Of a stretch of DNA of 26,296 nt, positions 3,166-26,296 are shown one piece after another. Source of the DNA: a virus (Duplodnaviria > Heunggongvirae > Uroviricota > Caudoviricetes); IMG/VR virus record IMGVR_UViG_3300026224_000020, positions 1 through 26,296 of that record; one strand, given 5' to 3'. The position numbers and the translations under genes were made by a program. Under the pieces are notes generated by a model. It worked only from the letters and a program-made list of their open reading frames with translations, ran no database searches and was not told the origin of the DNA. Each line of letters starts with the position of its first letter. Positions within the stretch are counted from its first letter, which is position 1.

Positions 3166-4266
3166 TCATTCCATTTCGAAATCATCAATCCTCACTTCAA
3201 GCTCCAGACTGGTCGTAAAACCGTTATCCGGGCTGACGGTATGCGTCAGAGTCGTAATGGTCCATTCCGCATCATCTATCGGCTGTTTAAAACCACTGAC
3301 CTTCACAGGCATTTCCGTGTAGAGATCTGCCCGCCCTTCTGCCAGTTGTAGCGAAAATGACGCAACGCCGCGTTGCAGGCGTTCCCACTGCATTTTCGCC
3401 GCTCGTTCGGCGTTGCTCCGGTTGGCATAAGTGCGATTAAGTACCAGCACGTTTTCATCCGTACCCACCAGGTAATCGCCCTGCTTCGCTTCTGGCTCTT
3501 TCTTCTGCTTCTTAGTTCTGCGCTTACGCTTCACCGTGGTGCTTTCTTTCTTCGCAGGTTCGCGGGTATGCAACCAGCTGGCAATTACGCCCGTGTAGGC
3601 TCCGCGATCTGCCAGGGTAAATCGGTGACTGTCGCCGTCCTTGCGTGTGATAGTGATCACTGGCAGAGGTTTACCAGTGGCGCTTTTGCCCTGCCCCTGC
3701 CGGATGAATAACAGATTGCCATTTTTCACCGACGCGATGGCACCGTACTGTCGCGCCAGCCGCATCAGAAAACTGCCGTCACTCTCATTAGTCTGGTCTA
3801 TATGCTCCACGGGCTTATCCGACAGGTCTTTACCCAGTGCCATCTTCAGCTTGTGCCGCGCGGCTATTTCCTTCACCACTTCCCCGACGGTGGTCTTATG
3901 CCACGATTTTTCACGGCGGGTATTCAGCGCTTCCCGAAAATCAGCACTTCGCGCCCGGATAGTCAGGCGGTCCGGTGCGCCAGTGTGTTCAATCTCGTCC
4001 ACCGTGAATGTCCCTTTCGGGAAAAGCGGCTGCCCCTTCCAGCCCAGCGCCAGCGTAATGACCGCACCACGGCGCGGCAGCACGATTTTTCCGTCGGCGT
4101 CGTCCAGCTCCAGATCAAGCTGGTCCGCGTCAAAGCCCCGATTGTCCGTCAACGTCAGACTCATCAGACGGTTATCCAGCACAGTAGTGATATCCCTGCC
4201 CTCAATACTGATGCTGAATGCGGGAGTTTTGTTGCCTTTGTTAAGCAGTTCAGAGCTGAAATTCAC
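3166..4266 (-). CDS. D: tail protein D (late control gene D family)
   Basis: 366-aa ORF in the P2 gpD position; lysine-rich central stretch (KRKRRTKKQKKEPEAK) and overall similarity to gpD as recalled; overlaps U by 4 nt. Confidence 0.85.
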   Translation of the reverse strand: MNFSSELLNKGNKTPAFSISIEGRDITTVLDNRLMSLTLTDNRGFDADQLDLELDDADGKIVLPRRGAVITLALGWKGQPLFPKGTFTVDEIEHTGAPDRLTIRARSADFREALNTRREKSWHKTTVGEVVKEIAARHKLKMALGKDLSDKPVEHIDQTNESDGSFLMRLARQYGAIASVKNGNLLFIRQGQGKSATGKPLPVITITRKDGDSHRFTLADRGAYTGVIASWLHTREPAKKESTTVKRKRRTKKQKKEPEAKQGDYLVGTDENVLVLNRTYANRSNAERAAKMQWERLQRGVASFSLQLAEGRADLYTEMPVKVSGFKQPIDDAEWTITTLTHTVSPDNGFTTSLELEVRIDDFEME

Positions 4267-10231: not shown

Positions 10232-11242
10232 TTAAATATTTTGATTCTGATAAGCCTGCGTTATTCTTTTCATAAGCTTATGTCTGAACGATTCCAAGGG
10301 AGATTCAATGCAATGATAGGCAATAGCCCCACCGCCAATACATAAAGCTATAGTAACTAAGTATGCAGTAACATTATCCAAAAATTTAGGATAAACAATA
10401 AAAATTATCATTATATGAAACAAATAAATTGAAAAACTATATTTCCCCAAATCCGCCATGATTTTTGAAGATAAAACCGCGCTTACATACCCACTGGAAT
10501 TTACTTGCAGATATACAAAGAGAGCAATAAATGGCCCCAATACCACAAATTTATTACCCAGCCAACCATTAGCCCCCTGAAAAGGAGGGGTCAACATTAT
10601 AAATATTAATATAATCGCAATTGACACCCCATCACTAACGAGAGATGATATTTTAATTTGAAAATAGTTATACATAAACGCAATTATAATTCCATACATA
10701 AAAACAGGAATGTAATACGGTAGCCTACCGTTGATTTCGTCATCCGTATAAGGGTATATAAAAGCGAACGCTAAGGTTAACAATATCAAAAACAACAAAG
10801 AATATTTTCTACCTGCAACTTTCTGGATACTAGATGCGAGATAAACCACAATCGGCAACAAAAAGTAAAACTTGAATTCTATCGGAATAGTCCAGAGATG
10901 GATGTAAGTACTATCAAATGAAATTATCGATTTCATTTTCTCTAAATCATAAAATCCCATAAGGTAATAAATTAATACTGCAATATAAAAAATCGGTAAT
11001 ATCCTTATTGTTCGCCCTAAAAGATAACTCAACACATTCAAAAACGAAAAACCAGAATTAATAAATTTATGTGTCAACAAAAAGGCGCTAAGAACAAAAA
11101 ACAACCAAACACCGGGCTGCCCCGTACCTCCGAGATGATCATGAAGTGAGGGAAAGAATAGTCCCGTAGAATGCATCACCACAACAATCATCAAAGCGAA
11201 ACCTCTCACGCCATCGGCAGAACGTATTTTATTCTCTTTCAT
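10232..11242 (-). CDS. acyltransferase family 3 membrane protein (putative O-antigen/surface polysaccharide O-acetyltransferase), prophage cargo
   Basis: Polytopic hydrophobic protein whose N-terminus (MKENKIRSADGVRGFALMIVVVMHS) fits the acyltransferase-3 R-x10-H signature; start placed at the internal Met (track ORF runs to 11320); visibly AT-rich, in the Z/fun moron slot. Confidence 0.8.
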   Translation of the reverse strand: MKENKIRSADGVRGFALMIVVVMHSTGLFFPSLHDHLGGTGQPGVWLFFVLSAFLLTHKFINSGFSFLNVLSYLLGRTIRILPIFYIAVLIYYLMGFYDLEKMKSIISFDSTYIHLWTIPIEFKFYFLLPIVVYLASSIQKVAGRKYSLLFLILLTLAFAFIYPYTDDEINGRLPYYIPVFMYGIIIAFMYNYFQIKISSLVSDGVSIAIILIFIMLTPPFQGANGWLGNKFVVLGPFIALFVYLQVNSSGYVSAVLSSKIMADLGKYSFSIYLFHIMIIFIVYPKFLDNVTAYLVTIALCIGGGAIAYHCIESPLESFRHKLMKRITQAYQNQNI

Positions 11243-11369
11243 ATTGATTTTTTTATTAAAAAACGGGAATCTAATATTATCACAGAAACAGACAACAAAC
11301 AGCCTCCCCCTCGTATTCATACCATATAGGCAGTGTGGGGGAGGATGATACTAACCATTTAATTCTCAG

Positions 11370-21835: not shown

Positions 21836-23602
21836 ATGAACACCACACTGACACCCGCAGATCTCGATCCCCGTCGGCAGGCCATGCTGCTGTACTTTCA
21901 GGGATACCGCGTAGCCCGCATTGCTGAAATGCTGGGCGAGAAAGTTGCAACCGTTCACAGCTGGAAAAAACGCGACAAGTGGGGTGACTATGGGCCGCTG
22001 GATCAGATGCAGCTCACCACCGCCGCACGCTACTGCCAGCTCATTATGAAGGAGCACAAAGAAGGGAAAGATTTCAAAGAGATTGACCTGCTGGCGCGCC
22101 AGTCGGAGCGCCATGCGCGGATCGGCAAGTTTAACAATGGCGGCAACGAAGCCGACTTAAACCCTAACGTCGCCAACCGCAACAAAGGCCCGCGCCGTCA
22201 GCCGGAAAAGAACGTTTTCACCGATGAACAGATTGAGAAGCTGGAAGAAATCTTCCATTCCTCCATGTTCAACTACCAGCGCCACTGGTGGGAAGCCGGA
22301 AAAACCAACCGCATCCGCAACCTGCTGAAGTCACGCCAGATCGGCGCGACCTTCTATTTTGCCCGTGAAGCCCTGATTGACGCCCTGCTAACCGGGCGTA
22401 ACCAGATTTTCCTTTCCGCCAGCAAGGCTCAGGCCCACGTCTTTAAGCAGTACATCATCGACTTCGCCAAAGAAGTGGAGGTGGAGCTGAAAGGCGATCC
22501 GATGGTGCTTCCTAACGGGGCCACGCTGTACTTCCTCGGCACCAATGCCCGCACGGCCCAGAGTTACCACGGCAACCTGTATCTGGATGAATATTTCTGG
22601 ATACCGAAATTCCAGGAGCTGCGCAAAGTGGCTTCCGGTATGGCTATTCACAAAAAATGGCGACAAACCTATTTTTCCACGCCATCCAGCCTGACACACA
22701 GTGCTTATCCGTTCTGGTCCGGTGCGCTGTTCAACCGAGGGCGCAACAAAGCCGATAAGGTGGACATCGACCTGTCCCACAGCAATCTGGCCCCCGGCCT
22801 GCTGTGCGCAGACGGGCAGTACCGCCAGATAGTCACTGTGGAAGATGCGGTGCGCGGCGGCTGTAACCTGTTCGACCTCGACCAGTTGCGCATGGAGTAC
22901 AGCCCGGACGAATACCAGAACCTGCTGATGTGTGAGTTCGTGGACGATCTCGCGTCTGTGTTCCCACTCAGCGAGCTGCAGGCGTGCATGGTGGACAGTT
23001 GGGAAGTCTGGACCGACTTTCATGCACTGGCCCTGCGCCCGTTTGGCTGGCGCGAAGTGTGGATCGGATATGACCCGGCGAAAGGTACGCAGAACGGCGA
23101 CAGCGCCGGATGCGTGGTGGTGGCGCCGCCAGCCGTGCCGGGCGGTAAGTTCCGCATTCTTGAGCGTCACCAGTGGCGCGGAATGGACTTCCGCGCCCAG
23201 GCTGACGCCATCAAAAAACTGACCGAACAGTACAACGTGACCTATATCGGTATCGACTCAACCGGCGTTGGTCACGGGGTTTACGAGAACGTGAAAGCGT
23301 TTTTTCCTGCCGTCCGGGAGTTTGTCTACAACCCCAACGTTAAAAACGCCCTGGTACTCAAGGCCTACGACATTATCAGCCACCGCCGTCTGGAGTTTGA
23401 CGCCGGACACACCGACATAGCGCAGTCCTTTATGGCAATCCGTCGAGCCACCACCGCCAGTGGCAACCGCCCGACCTATGAAGCCAGCCGCAGCGAAGAA
23501 GCCAGCCACGCCGATCTGGCCTGGGCAACGATGCACGCACTGTTTAACGAACCGCTGCAGGGCGAATCCGCCAATACCAGCAATATTGTGGAGATTTTTT
23601 GA
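21836..23602 (+). CDS. P: terminase large (ATPase) subunit P
   Basis: 588-aa ORF divergent from O; size and position match P2 gpP. Confidence 0.9.
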   Translation: MNTTLTPADLDPRRQAMLLYFQGYRVARIAEMLGEKVATVHSWKKRDKWGDYGPLDQMQLTTAARYCQLIMKEHKEGKDFKEIDLLARQSERHARIGKFNNGGNEADLNPNVANRNKGPRRQPEKNVFTDEQIEKLEEIFHSSMFNYQRHWWEAGKTNRIRNLLKSRQIGATFYFAREALIDALLTGRNQIFLSASKAQAHVFKQYIIDFAKEVEVELKGDPMVLPNGATLYFLGTNARTAQSYHGNLYLDEYFWIPKFQELRKVASGMAIHKKWRQTYFSTPSSLTHSAYPFWSGALFNRGRNKADKVDIDLSHSNLAPGLLCADGQYRQIVTVEDAVRGGCNLFDLDQLRMEYSPDEYQNLLMCEFVDDLASVFPLSELQACMVDSWEVWTDFHALALRPFGWREVWIGYDPAKGTQNGDSAGCVVVAPPAVPGGKFRILERHQWRGMDFRAQADAIKKLTEQYNVTYIGIDSTGVGHGVYENVKAFFPAVREFVYNPNVKNALVLKAYDIISHRRLEFDAGHTDIAQSFMAIRRATTASGNRPTYEASRSEEASHADLAWATMHALFNEPLQGESANTSNIVEIF

Positions 23603-24636
23603 TGGGAAAGAGTAAGAAGAACCGCGCTGCGGCGACGAAACAGATCCAGCTTAAAAGTCAAACTACAGCCGAAGCATTCAGCTTCGGCGATCCCGTTCCT
23701 GTTCTGGACCGCCGAGAACTGCTGGATTATGTGGAATGCGTACAGATGGACCGCTGGTATGAGCCGCCCGTCAGCTTTGACGGACTGGCGCGCACCTTCC
23801 GCGCTGCCGTTCATCATAGTTCCCCGATTGCAGTAAAGTGCAACATTCTGACCAGCACCTACATCCCTCACCCGCTGCTCAGCCAGCAGGCTTTTTCGCG
23901 TTTTGTGCAGGACTATCTGGTATTTGGTAACGCCTACCTGGAGAAACGCACGAACCGCTTCGGTGAAGTTATCGCCCTTGAACCTGCCTTGGCAAAATAC
24001 ACCCGACGCGGGTTAGACCTGGATACCTACTGGTTTGTGCAATACGGTATGACCACGCAGCCATATCAGTTCACGAAAGGCAGCATCTTTCATCTGATGG
24101 AACCGGACATCAACCAGGAGATCTACGGCCTGCCCGGTTATCTTTCTGCTATTCCATCCGCCCTGCTCAACGAGTCTGCCACGCTGTTCCGCCGCAAGTA
24201 TTACATTAACGGCAGTCATGCAGGCTTCATCATGTATATGACCGACGCCGCGCAGAACCAGGAAGATGTGAACAACCTCCGCAACGCGATGAAAAGCGCC
24301 AAAGGCCCTGGCAACTTCCGCAACCTGTTTATGTACTCGCCTAACGGCAAAAAGGACGGGCTTCAGATCATCCCGTTGTCAGAAGTCGCAGCGAAAGATG
24401 AATTTCTGAACATCAAGAACGTGAGCCGAGACGACATGATGGCTGCACACCGCGTACCGCCTCAGATGATGGGAATTTTGCCGAATAATGTTGGGGGGTT
24501 TGGGGATGTGGAGAAGGCAAGTCGGGTATTTGTTCGTAATGAATTAATACCTTTGCAAAAACGTTTCGAAGAATTAAATTTATGGCTAAAAAATAATATT
24601 ATTACATTCAAAGAATATCAACTATCCCTAGACTAA
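23599..24636 (+). CDS. Q: portal protein Q (3' end AT-rich, apparently mosaic)
   Basis: 345-aa ORF overlapping the P stop; size matches P2 gpQ; the last roughly 30 codons are visibly AT-rich, unlike the rest of the gene. Confidence 0.88.
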   Translation: MMGKSKKNRAAATKQIQLKSQTTAEAFSFGDPVPVLDRRELLDYVECVQMDRWYEPPVSFDGLARTFRAAVHHSSPIAVKCNILTSTYIPHPLLSQQAFSRFVQDYLVFGNAYLEKRTNRFGEVIALEPALAKYTRRGLDLDTYWFVQYGMTTQPYQFTKGSIFHLMEPDINQEIYGLPGYLSAIPSALLNESATLFRRKYYINGSHAGFIMYMTDAAQNQEDVNNLRNAMKSAKGPGNFRNLFMYSPNGKKDGLQIIPLSEVAAKDEFLNIKNVSRDDMMAAHRVPPQMMGILPNNVGGFGDVEKASRVFVRNELIPLQKRFEELNLWLKNNIITFKEYQLSLD

Positions 24637-24683: not shown

Positions 24684-26093
24684 TTACTCATCTACTCTGA
24701 TTTTTTGTTTTTTATTATTTTGAGTTAAGACATTTATGGTAATAGATGTATACGGATGAAAGTCAGGCACTATACTTTTAACCTCTCCATTTTCAAGAAA
24801 ATGATGTGCTATTGAAGGAAATAAATCAGGATCTACAGGATATTTAGCATTAGGATTATGATACATATTTAAACCTTCTGCCCATGTTTCTGTAATATCG
24901 CCTTCTTTCACTTCAAAACTAAATGCTGCTGGATATAATGCCTCTGGGTCATGATCATGGCAGTAACCACTCCTAAATAATCTAAGGTCACTTCTTCCAA
25001 AACCAGCCAGTTTTCCCATCCGATTAAACTTCGATATAGTACCACTATTAGAACTAAGGACGGCCGAAATATTTTCAGACTCATCCAAGAAGAAAAAGCC
25101 TGAAGGAATTTCCTTTTTCTCAAATTGATGCGATATAATTTTCTTAGTTGCTAAACTGTAACATCCATCTTCAGATTTAACATGCTCATAGCGAATACCA
25201 TAAAGATACTGCCAAAGTGCACTATGGGACCAAATCATAGAGTTTGGTTCATGAAAATCAGCAATTGCGAAAATTAAAGGATTCCCCTTAACATGTTCTA
25301 GATCCCAGTATCGAGTTTTCTTTTTCAGTTTAGAATAGAGAGAACTTCCAAATTTAATCGGCATATAATTCTCTATTTTCTCTAGCAATTCTTCCTTACT
25401 TTTAGGTTCAGATAGCATTTCAGATGATTGATTAATATCATTCCCTGTTGGATTAACCGTTACAGCTTCAATGCAAATAGTATTACCATACTTACGTGCC
25501 ACATAATCAGGGGCATTAAACTGCCTATCTAGCCAAAAGTGTTCCTCTCGTAAATATGCGAAAAGATATAACTCCCATAGCCGGGCATCAAAACCTGTTG
25601 TCTGAAACTGCTCTATAAAATTCCCGTCGACATCCTCAAAATGATTCATCATTTCCTTGATTATCCCTGTTGCAGGCGACCAGTTCGCGTATTTACCAAA
25701 TAATGAAAAATGATGATGAAGTTTATCTAGTGTAACTATAGGTGTGAATAAATCCATTGCTTTATAAGTTTCATCACCTTGTGGAAATACTTTTACGTTT
25801 AATTTAGTATGCTTCCGCATTAATTTCTTTAGTTTTGCTCGTGCAGAATTCATTTCTGAAACACTAGTAAATAGGTCAATACATCTATATCTCCCACTTA
25901 AGTCTCTTGCTAAAACAATACCGCTATAATCTTCATCGATTTGATCCAATAATAGTGCCCCTAGCAGGAACTCTCTCGGACTACAGTACCACTCAAACTC
26001 ATAACCTAAAAGTTCAGTATTTGGCATTCTGGTCCAATCAACAAAAGCATTAAACCTCTCTTTACTCATTTTTTTTATATCAAGAAAAGACAT
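24684..26093 (-). CDS. hypothetical 469-aa protein, AT-rich cargo in the P2 tin/old variable slot; candidate single-gene anti-phage defense or exclusion protein
   Basis: Long uninterrupted ORF in AT-rich DNA where stops are frequent; GAGGT RBS about 8 nt upstream of the ATG at 26093; no Walker A or other motif I can confidently recognise; convergent with Q. Confidence 0.82.
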   Translation of the reverse strand: MSFLDIKKMSKERFNAFVDWTRMPNTELLGYEFEWYCSPREFLLGALLLDQIDEDYSGIVLARDLSGRYRCIDLFTSVSEMNSARAKLKKLMRKHTKLNVKVFPQGDETYKAMDLFTPIVTLDKLHHHFSLFGKYANWSPATGIIKEMMNHFEDVDGNFIEQFQTTGFDARLWELYLFAYLREEHFWLDRQFNAPDYVARKYGNTICIEAVTVNPTGNDINQSSEMLSEPKSKEELLEKIENYMPIKFGSSLYSKLKKKTRYWDLEHVKGNPLIFAIADFHEPNSMIWSHSALWQYLYGIRYEHVKSEDGCYSLATKKIISHQFEKKEIPSGFFFLDESENISAVLSSNSGTISKFNRMGKLAGFGRSDLRLFRSGYCHDHDPEALYPAAFSFEVKEGDITETWAEGLNMYHNPNAKYPVDPDLFPSIAHHFLENGEVKSIVPDFHPYTSITINVLTQNNKKQKIRVDE

Positions 26094-26171
26094 CTTTCTA
26101 CCTCATCACGAAAAAATATTTTTTCCTAAAAAGACTTAAGTTAGCTTAATCTATTGATAAAAAAAAGCTAA

Positions 26172-26296
26172 GGAAGGTGCGAACAAGTTCCTGATATGAG
26201 ATCATCATATTCATCCGGAGCGCATCCCAGAGGGACATCATGAGCCATCAACTCACCTTCGCCGATAGTGAATTCAGCACTAAGCGCCGTCAGACC
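26172..26296 (+). mobile_element. IS5-like insertion sequence, left end (continues beyond window)
   Basis: Terminal inverted repeat GGAAGGTGCGAACAAG at 26172 preceded by CTAA (IS5 YTAR target); following sequence closely resembles the IS5 left end as recalled. Confidence 0.8.
26240..26296 (+). CDS. insH: IS5-family transposase, N-terminal fragment (truncated by window end)
   Basis: ATG at 26240; translation MSHQLTFADSEFSTKRRQT matches the IS5 InsH N-terminus (MSHQLTFADSEFSSKRRQT as recalled). Confidence 0.8.
   Translation, partial: MSHQLTFADSEFSTKRRQT

Follow-up and report, generated by a model that had tools for sequence, protein, structure and literature searches.

In phages of the P2 group, a hotspot for defence genes is located between the replication gene (gpA) and the portal gene, beside cos (PMC9519451; PMC9122126). 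One of the systems concerned is PD-T7-1, a single-gene anti-T7 defence system from the study of Vassallo et al. (PMC9519451), and the PD-T7-1 gene described below occupies the same P2 hotspot (Rousset et al. 2022; Vassallo et al. 2022). The genes old and tin of P2 are found on the gpA side of cos, whereas in the Fels-2-like clade the cargo lies between the portal gene and cos; this slot holds an AbiU-like gene in Fels-2 and a HEPN-type gene in 813R9, both oriented like PD-T7-1. The layout with the cargo between portal gene and cos was also seen in the relatives L001 (7586-7640) and L004 (about 4183-4236). The second component of the locus is an insertion element, ISKpn26, which is best known from the disruption of mgrB in colistin-resistant Klebsiella pneumoniae. 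ISKpn26 is a named element of the IS5 family and has a length of 1196 bp (PMC8796155). IS5 uses Py-T-A-Pu as target, in AT-rich, easily melted upstream regions (PMC5493358), and the motifs of its weak transposase promoter were defined by 5' RACE (PMC11894529).

The stretch of DNA analysed here (26,296 nucleotides, referred to as the window) is E. coli DNA, which comprises ybjM (290-667) and ybjL (936-2621), followed by a P2-like prophage. This prophage belongs to the Peduoviridae and is integrated beside ybjL. Its late genes occur in the P2-type order (gpQ, gpP, gpO, gpN, tail genes, gpD), collinear with those of annotated P2-family prophages; they run from gpD to the capsid, scaffold, terminase and portal genes, and all of them look intact. 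The Pfam domains Phage_portal, Terminase_5/6N/6C, Phage_GPD and Phage_P2_GpU as well as tail-fibre domains were detected in the window. No tRNA gene is present anywhere in the window, so that this end of the prophage does not adjoin a tRNA. Between the tail-fibre assembly and tail sheath genes, where P2 has its second cargo hotspot (Z/fun), lies a gene for an Acyl_transf_3 acyltransferase (10232-11320, minus strand). It gave no match in PADLOC and may serve lysogenic conversion by modifying the surface.

The left border of the cargo slot is formed by the P2-type portal gene gpQ (23599..24636, plus strand; Pfam Phage_portal), whose counterparts are annotated as portal in the relatives. The last approximately 28 codons of this gene (24550-24636) are AT-rich, with about 31% GC, and diverge among this prophage, Fels-2, 813R9 and P2, in contrast to the conserved remainder of the gene. 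On its left side, the swappable cargo cassette therefore seems to begin within the 3' end of the portal gene. Next to it, the gene that the preliminary description had called a cargo gene (24684..26093, minus strand; 469 aa) is, judged by its sequence, the anti-phage defence gene PD-T7-1. The protein matched the PADLOC model of PD-T7-1 (PDLC04073) with E = 3.5e-196, residues 7-457 being aligned to model positions 2-449 of 452, and had no match in Pfam, NCBIfam or PDB; protection against T7 has been published for the founding member of this family. Since the ORF extends from 24684 to 26093, the adjoining spacer (26094..26171, minus strand), which is the native DNA upstream of PD-T7-1, measures exactly 78 bp. 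It contains a GAGG Shine-Dalgarno sequence and a weak candidate -10 element. The GC content is 35% in PD-T7-1 and 24% in the spacer, compared to 52% in the whole window.

The same prophage is found in a degraded form in E. coli 33-6 (NZ_CP050031.1, contig L020, 626-3771) and 58-3. There, the portal gene is truncated by IS3, and PD-T7-1 is split by IS1 into two 'hypothetical proteins'. The AT-rich cargo slot is struck repeatedly by IS elements.

At the far end of the spacer, the tetranucleotide CTAA (26168..26171, plus strand), presumably the left copy of a 4-bp target duplication, as the empty site of the IS-free relatives indicates, is directly followed by the 16-bp left terminal repeat (IRL) GGAAGGTGCGAACAAG (26172..26187, plus strand). 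This 16-mer also opens K-12 IS5A and full ISKpn26 copies; it occurs only once in the window, even if two mismatches are allowed (chance expectation 0.03). A terminal repeat of the form GGAAGGTGCGAA(C/T)AAG is expected at both ends of the element, and the left one is exact. The ATG of the transposase gene was read at 26240, and the frame starting there gives MSHQLTFADSEFSTKRRQT and stays open to the end of the window (26240..26296, plus strand), so that the first 19 codons are present, pointing away from PD-T7-1.

The window ends 125 bp into ISKpn26, of which it contains the left end (26172..26296, plus strand). Annotated ISKpn26 copies with 100% identity to this piece were found in at least 4127 plasmid records (E = 1e-58), mostly from Klebsiella, Escherichia, Enterobacter and Citrobacter, where the annotation reads 'IS5-like element ISKpn26 family'. 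Contig L005 (ENA ERZ27241745, 93.8 kb), which shows no mismatch to the window over 7613 bp, extends 540 bp deeper into the element, and its IS part of 665 bp is 100% identical to ISKpn26-family copies of E. coli and Salmonella. The transposase fragment of 199 aa encoded on L005 possesses the domains DUF772 and DDE_Tnp_1, the window itself holding 19 codons, and the 326-aa transposase of a copy with identical prefix matched NF033581 (IS5 family transposase) above the cut-off (5.6e-110). Full ISKpn26 copies have a length of 1195-1197 bp and terminate in CTTATTCGCACCTTCC; the right repeat is present in full copies whose shared part is identical. A related ISKpn26 copy occurs in approximately 2500 of the 5426 complete E. 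coli genomes. The element is ISKpn26, named, very common and mentioned in 294 papers, and no undescribed IS5 variant; the latter was ruled out by the complete identity to known copies.

Several statements of the preliminary description are confirmed by these data. The CTAA, the IS5 repeat at 26172 and the transposase start at 26240 are all as read from the sequence, and the AT-rich gap of 78 bp to the ATG of the 469-aa gene is found at 26094-26171 with 24% GC. The assignment to the IS5 family agrees with the identity of the 125 bp to ISKpn26 and with the match of the full transposase to NF033581, and the proposed location inside a prophage agrees with the P2-like late genes in the window and with PD-T7-1 at a distance of 78 bp. 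It was also correctly noticed that the element differs from canonical IS5 (86.5% identity to K-12 IS5A over 125 bp), but the suggestion of a distinct IS5-family variant had to be dropped, because the element is identical to thousands of known ISKpn26 copies.

Within the IS end, a match to the weak IS5 transposase promoter (26177..26205, plus strand) was found, with GTGCGA at 26177-26182 as -35 and GATCAT at 26200-26205 as -10 hexamer. By analogy to IS5, these hexamers are probably functional in ISKpn26. An A8 tract at 26159-26166 precedes the transposase transcription start, as deduced from IS5, by approximately 46-53 bp. As this corresponds to the position of an UP element (PMC11894529 and the sequence), the tract might boost transcription of this particular IS copy.

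The insertion site is found in its empty form in S88, H15 and eight other contigs, where it reads AAGCTAA|GTAACGACC, with ...AAAAAAAAGCTAA on the left side. A longer reading in the IS-free relatives is ...TTGATAAAAAAAAGCTAA|GTAACGACCAAATACGCGCGCTCGTATCCCCGCCACGCC..., and CTAA is present there as a single copy. In the closest relative (L004), which is free of the IS, the 7471 bp before the junction show no mismatch to the window. Furthermore, the segment from the portal gene to PD-T7-1 was found in 25 complete E. coli genomes with 99.6-99.9% identity, the match ending at the insertion point, and none of these 25 genomes carries the IS at this position. No copy of the junction itself turned up among the 5426 complete E. 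coli genomes, and exact searches for the left and the predicted right junction gave no hit in viral, JGI metagenome and GTDB-representative collections. The arrangement of IS and PD-T7-1 is, beside the window, present in L005 and three more contigs.

The CTAA in very AT-rich DNA fits the target preference of IS5. All seven full ISKpn26 copies that were sampled are flanked on the left by CTAA, TTAG or CTAG, each of the form Py-T-A-Pu. A matching 4-bp duplication was found in only three of the seven, so that rearranged copies are common. The copies without a matching duplication are those of L013, L015, L025 and L026; in L015 the two flanks, CTAA and TTAG, are mutual reverse complements. Flanks of this kind suggest that ISKpn26 copies often recombine or invert with one another.

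The best explanation of the locus, to which a probability of roughly 0.78 is assigned, is a simple insertion of ISKpn26 in the AT-rich spacer between PD-T7-1 and cos of a P2-like E. coli prophage. A 1196-bp copy would have transposed into the CTAA about 80 bp (-82 to -79) upstream of the start codon of PD-T7-1. The element is predicted to be complete, and its right end would be followed by a second CTAA and then by GTAACGACCAAATACGCGCGC..., giving a right junction of the form CTTATTCGCACCTTCC-CTAA-GTAACGACC (further forms: CTAA-GTAACGACCAAATACGCG and CTAA GTAACGACCAAATACGCGCGCTCGTATCCCCGCC). Both the window and L005 end short of the predicted right inverted repeat and second CTAA. It is most likely that the window stops 125 bp inside the element due to a break of the short-read assembly at a multi-copy repeat. 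As a mobile-element insertion in a known P2 defence hotspot, the event is ordinary and of a kind that is already known.

Beside PD-T7-1, the packaging site is the second neighbour of the insertion. A core of 55 bp is cited in PMC5694545 for the cos site of P2 and P4. In an alignment of the joined ends of P2 and P4 with S88, H15, Fels-2, 813R9 and a Yersinia phage, this core consists of 7 bp, the 19-nt cohesive-end sequence and 29 bp. A deletion analysis of the minimal cos was reportedly carried out by Ziermann and Calendar (1990). The core begins 13 bp past the empty site in every IS-free relative, and in the prophage of the window it is expected beyond the IS; 13 bp separate the insertion point from the 55-bp core, and 20 bp separate it from the 19-nt cohesive-end sequence. 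Among related phages, similarity around cos ends on the portal side 7-9 bp from the cohesive end, and in relatives with other cargo genes it sets in 14-15 bp beyond the insertion point, on its right side. Since similarity begins only to the right of this point, the IS sits in the variable cargo cassette, outside the cos core. Judged by sequence comparison, the functional part of cos would extend 7-9 bp toward the portal gene from the cohesive end. Because the flank varies past this distance among viable phages, cos probably still works, and the prophage, although approximately 1.2 kb longer, would still be packageable with its cos core intact.

To the right of cos, a terminator-like hairpin, a 225-aa ORF, a DinI-like gene and gpA follow in this order in L004. 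The hairpin (L004, 4128-4152) reads GGCCCGCCAG-UUCU-CUGGCGGGCU on the gene strand, followed by UUUUGCG, with a folding energy of -30.1 kcal/mol and z = -4.0. Located between the early-operon genes and cos, it is probably the terminator of the early operon; a simple terminator scan overlooked it. In the IS-free relatives, this terminator-like hairpin already parts PD-T7-1 from the early operon. Past cos, prophages with the same PD-T7-1 possess the 225-aa ORF (L003 and L004), a 111-aa ORF (H15) or neither (S88); the coordinates of these small genes are 5033-5710 in L003 and 7991-8326 in L002. Neither of the two ORFs gave a match in PADLOC, and the 225-aa protein has homologues across the Enterobacterales, without a Pfam domain on record.

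No ORF and no obvious operon partner is interrupted by the element. A missing upstream partner gene was considered and rejected, since the IS-free relatives have only cos and the terminator-like hairpin at this position and the right-hand neighbours vary among relatives with the same PD-T7-1. The earlier suggestion that such a partner may have been cut off is contradicted by the order in the IS-free relatives, which is 13 bp of spacer, the cos core, the hairpin and only then a gene. The suggested separation of the gene from the replication/lysogeny module holds insofar as approximately 1.2 kb would have been added, which is trivial in the case of a simple insertion; however, cos and the terminator-like hairpin already intervene in the IS-free relatives.

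A scan for consensus sigma-70 promoters upstream of PD-T7-1 gave no match, neither with nor without the IS. With a position-weight matrix, weak promoter candidates only were obtained. The best of these has its -10 element TAGATT at 26148-26153 and a -35 element which straddles the junction and is changed from GTTACT to CTTCCT by the insertion. As the scans yielded only weak candidates, no promoter is called for PD-T7-1, and any effect on its expression is a guess. With the IS end replacing everything past -78, PD-T7-1 would retain the native 78 bp in front of it and, with them, its ribosome-binding site. Its transcription may be altered modestly, and a lowered or unchanged level would be likelier than a raised one. 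An outward-facing hybrid promoter, composed of the IS end and flanking DNA, was also looked for by eye and by scan, and no credible one was found. Since the transposase gene points away from PD-T7-1, read-through from the IS would run toward cos and not toward the defence gene.

The simple insertion has to be weighed against other explanations. Both the window and L005 end inside the IS before the right junction is reached, four of the seven sampled ISKpn26 copies lack a matching duplication, and IS-riddled remnants of the same prophage occur in other E. coli strains such as 33-6. For these reasons it was considered that the IS might mark the endpoint of a rearrangement, either a recombination with another copy or an adjacent deletion or inversion. 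If this were true, the IS would no longer lead on to cos, the replication genes and the lysogeny module, and the window would contain a defective prophage remnant that keeps PD-T7-1. However, the late genes in the window all look intact, the left junction is exact and lies at a canonical target, and nothing points directly to a deletion. Moreover, contig ends inside a multi-copy IS are expected from the short-read assembly of a simple insertion, and a rearrangement is consequently regarded as unlikely. An artefact, in which prophage and IS reads were joined to a chimera at the contig end, could be suspected, because the window terminates in the IS and L005, its sister contig, originates from a metagenome assembly. 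This is extremely improbable, as the break falls exactly on the first base of the terminal repeat after a canonical CTAA and the identical junction is present in L005 and three similar contigs.

A different question is whether the insertion was selected as a regulatory change. ISKpn26 could relieve a silencing of the H-NS type that affects the AT-rich gene, similar to the effect of IS5 at bgl. Alternatively, the native promoter could be cut off, and a costly defence gene would thereby be silenced. IS5 in AT-rich upstream regions activates bgl, glpFK, flhDC and fucAO (PMC5493358, PMC11894529). The low GC content of the gene (35%) and of the spacer (24%) in comparison to the window (52%), the loss of the native -35 element by the best promoter candidate (GTTACT to CTTCCT), the presence of the arrangement in four contigs of the collection and the inactivation of PD-T7-1 by IS1 in another strain are consistent with this idea. 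Nevertheless, every promoter candidate scores weakly, so that an effect on PD-T7-1 is possible only, and the four sightings could represent one clone. The IS end that faces the gene is the 5' end of the transposase gene, while enhancer activity of the glpFK type is located in the 3' end region of IS5, and a fusion promoter of the fucAO type would point away from PD-T7-1 here. A selected regulatory change is therefore rather doubtful. In a broader sense, a selected effect could consist in an expression switch of PD-T7-1 or in a weakening of cos. It was considered because the junction is only 13 bp away from the cos core and coincides with the -35 position of the only candidate PD-T7-1 promoter. 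A further possibility is that the IS travels in P2-type virions as a passenger. This whole reading appears quite improbable. A weakened cos would fix the prophage and its defence gene in the chromosome.

Under the preferred explanation, a simple insertion of ISKpn26, the locus carries little weight beyond annotation: ISKpn26 and PD-T7-1 can be named, the stop of the contig is explained, and no gene or operon is found broken. It is of modest interest that a prophage which otherwise looks intact carries an IS between its packaging site and a defence gene. The same applies to the limit of cos conservation on the portal side in this clade (7-9 bp) and to the recurrent IS hits in the slot. Lysogens with and without the IS form a natural pair, with which the requirements of PD-T7-1 and cos for upstream DNA could be tested.

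The insertions of IS5 at bglGFB, glpFK, flhDC and fucAO are among the closest counterparts of this locus, as they likewise occurred at CTAA in AT-rich DNA shortly upstream of a gene start. In those cases the expression of the neighbouring operon is changed, whereas at PD-T7-1 such a change is a possibility. At fucAO, transcription from a fusion promoter passes through the IS and enters the operon, whereas the IS of the window reads away from PD-T7-1. In comparison to ISKpn26, the element of the window has the IRL, the N-terminus of the transposase and the Py-T-A-Pu target in common and shows no sequence difference; the insertion locus alone, absent from the 5426 complete E. coli genomes, is new. 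The identity to a K. pneumoniae plasmid copy is 98.6%; between the ISKpn26 copy of the E. coli type and a copy from a K. pneumoniae plasmid, 13 of 1196 positions differ. K-12 IS5A is more distant, with a nucleotide identity of 91.6% over the whole element and 86.5% over the 125 bp of the window. The insH copies of K-12 IS5 nevertheless share the identical 16-bp IRL, a transposase with 97.9% identity, the length class and the target consensus, and both hexamers of the K-12 IS5 transposase promoter are kept in the element of the window.
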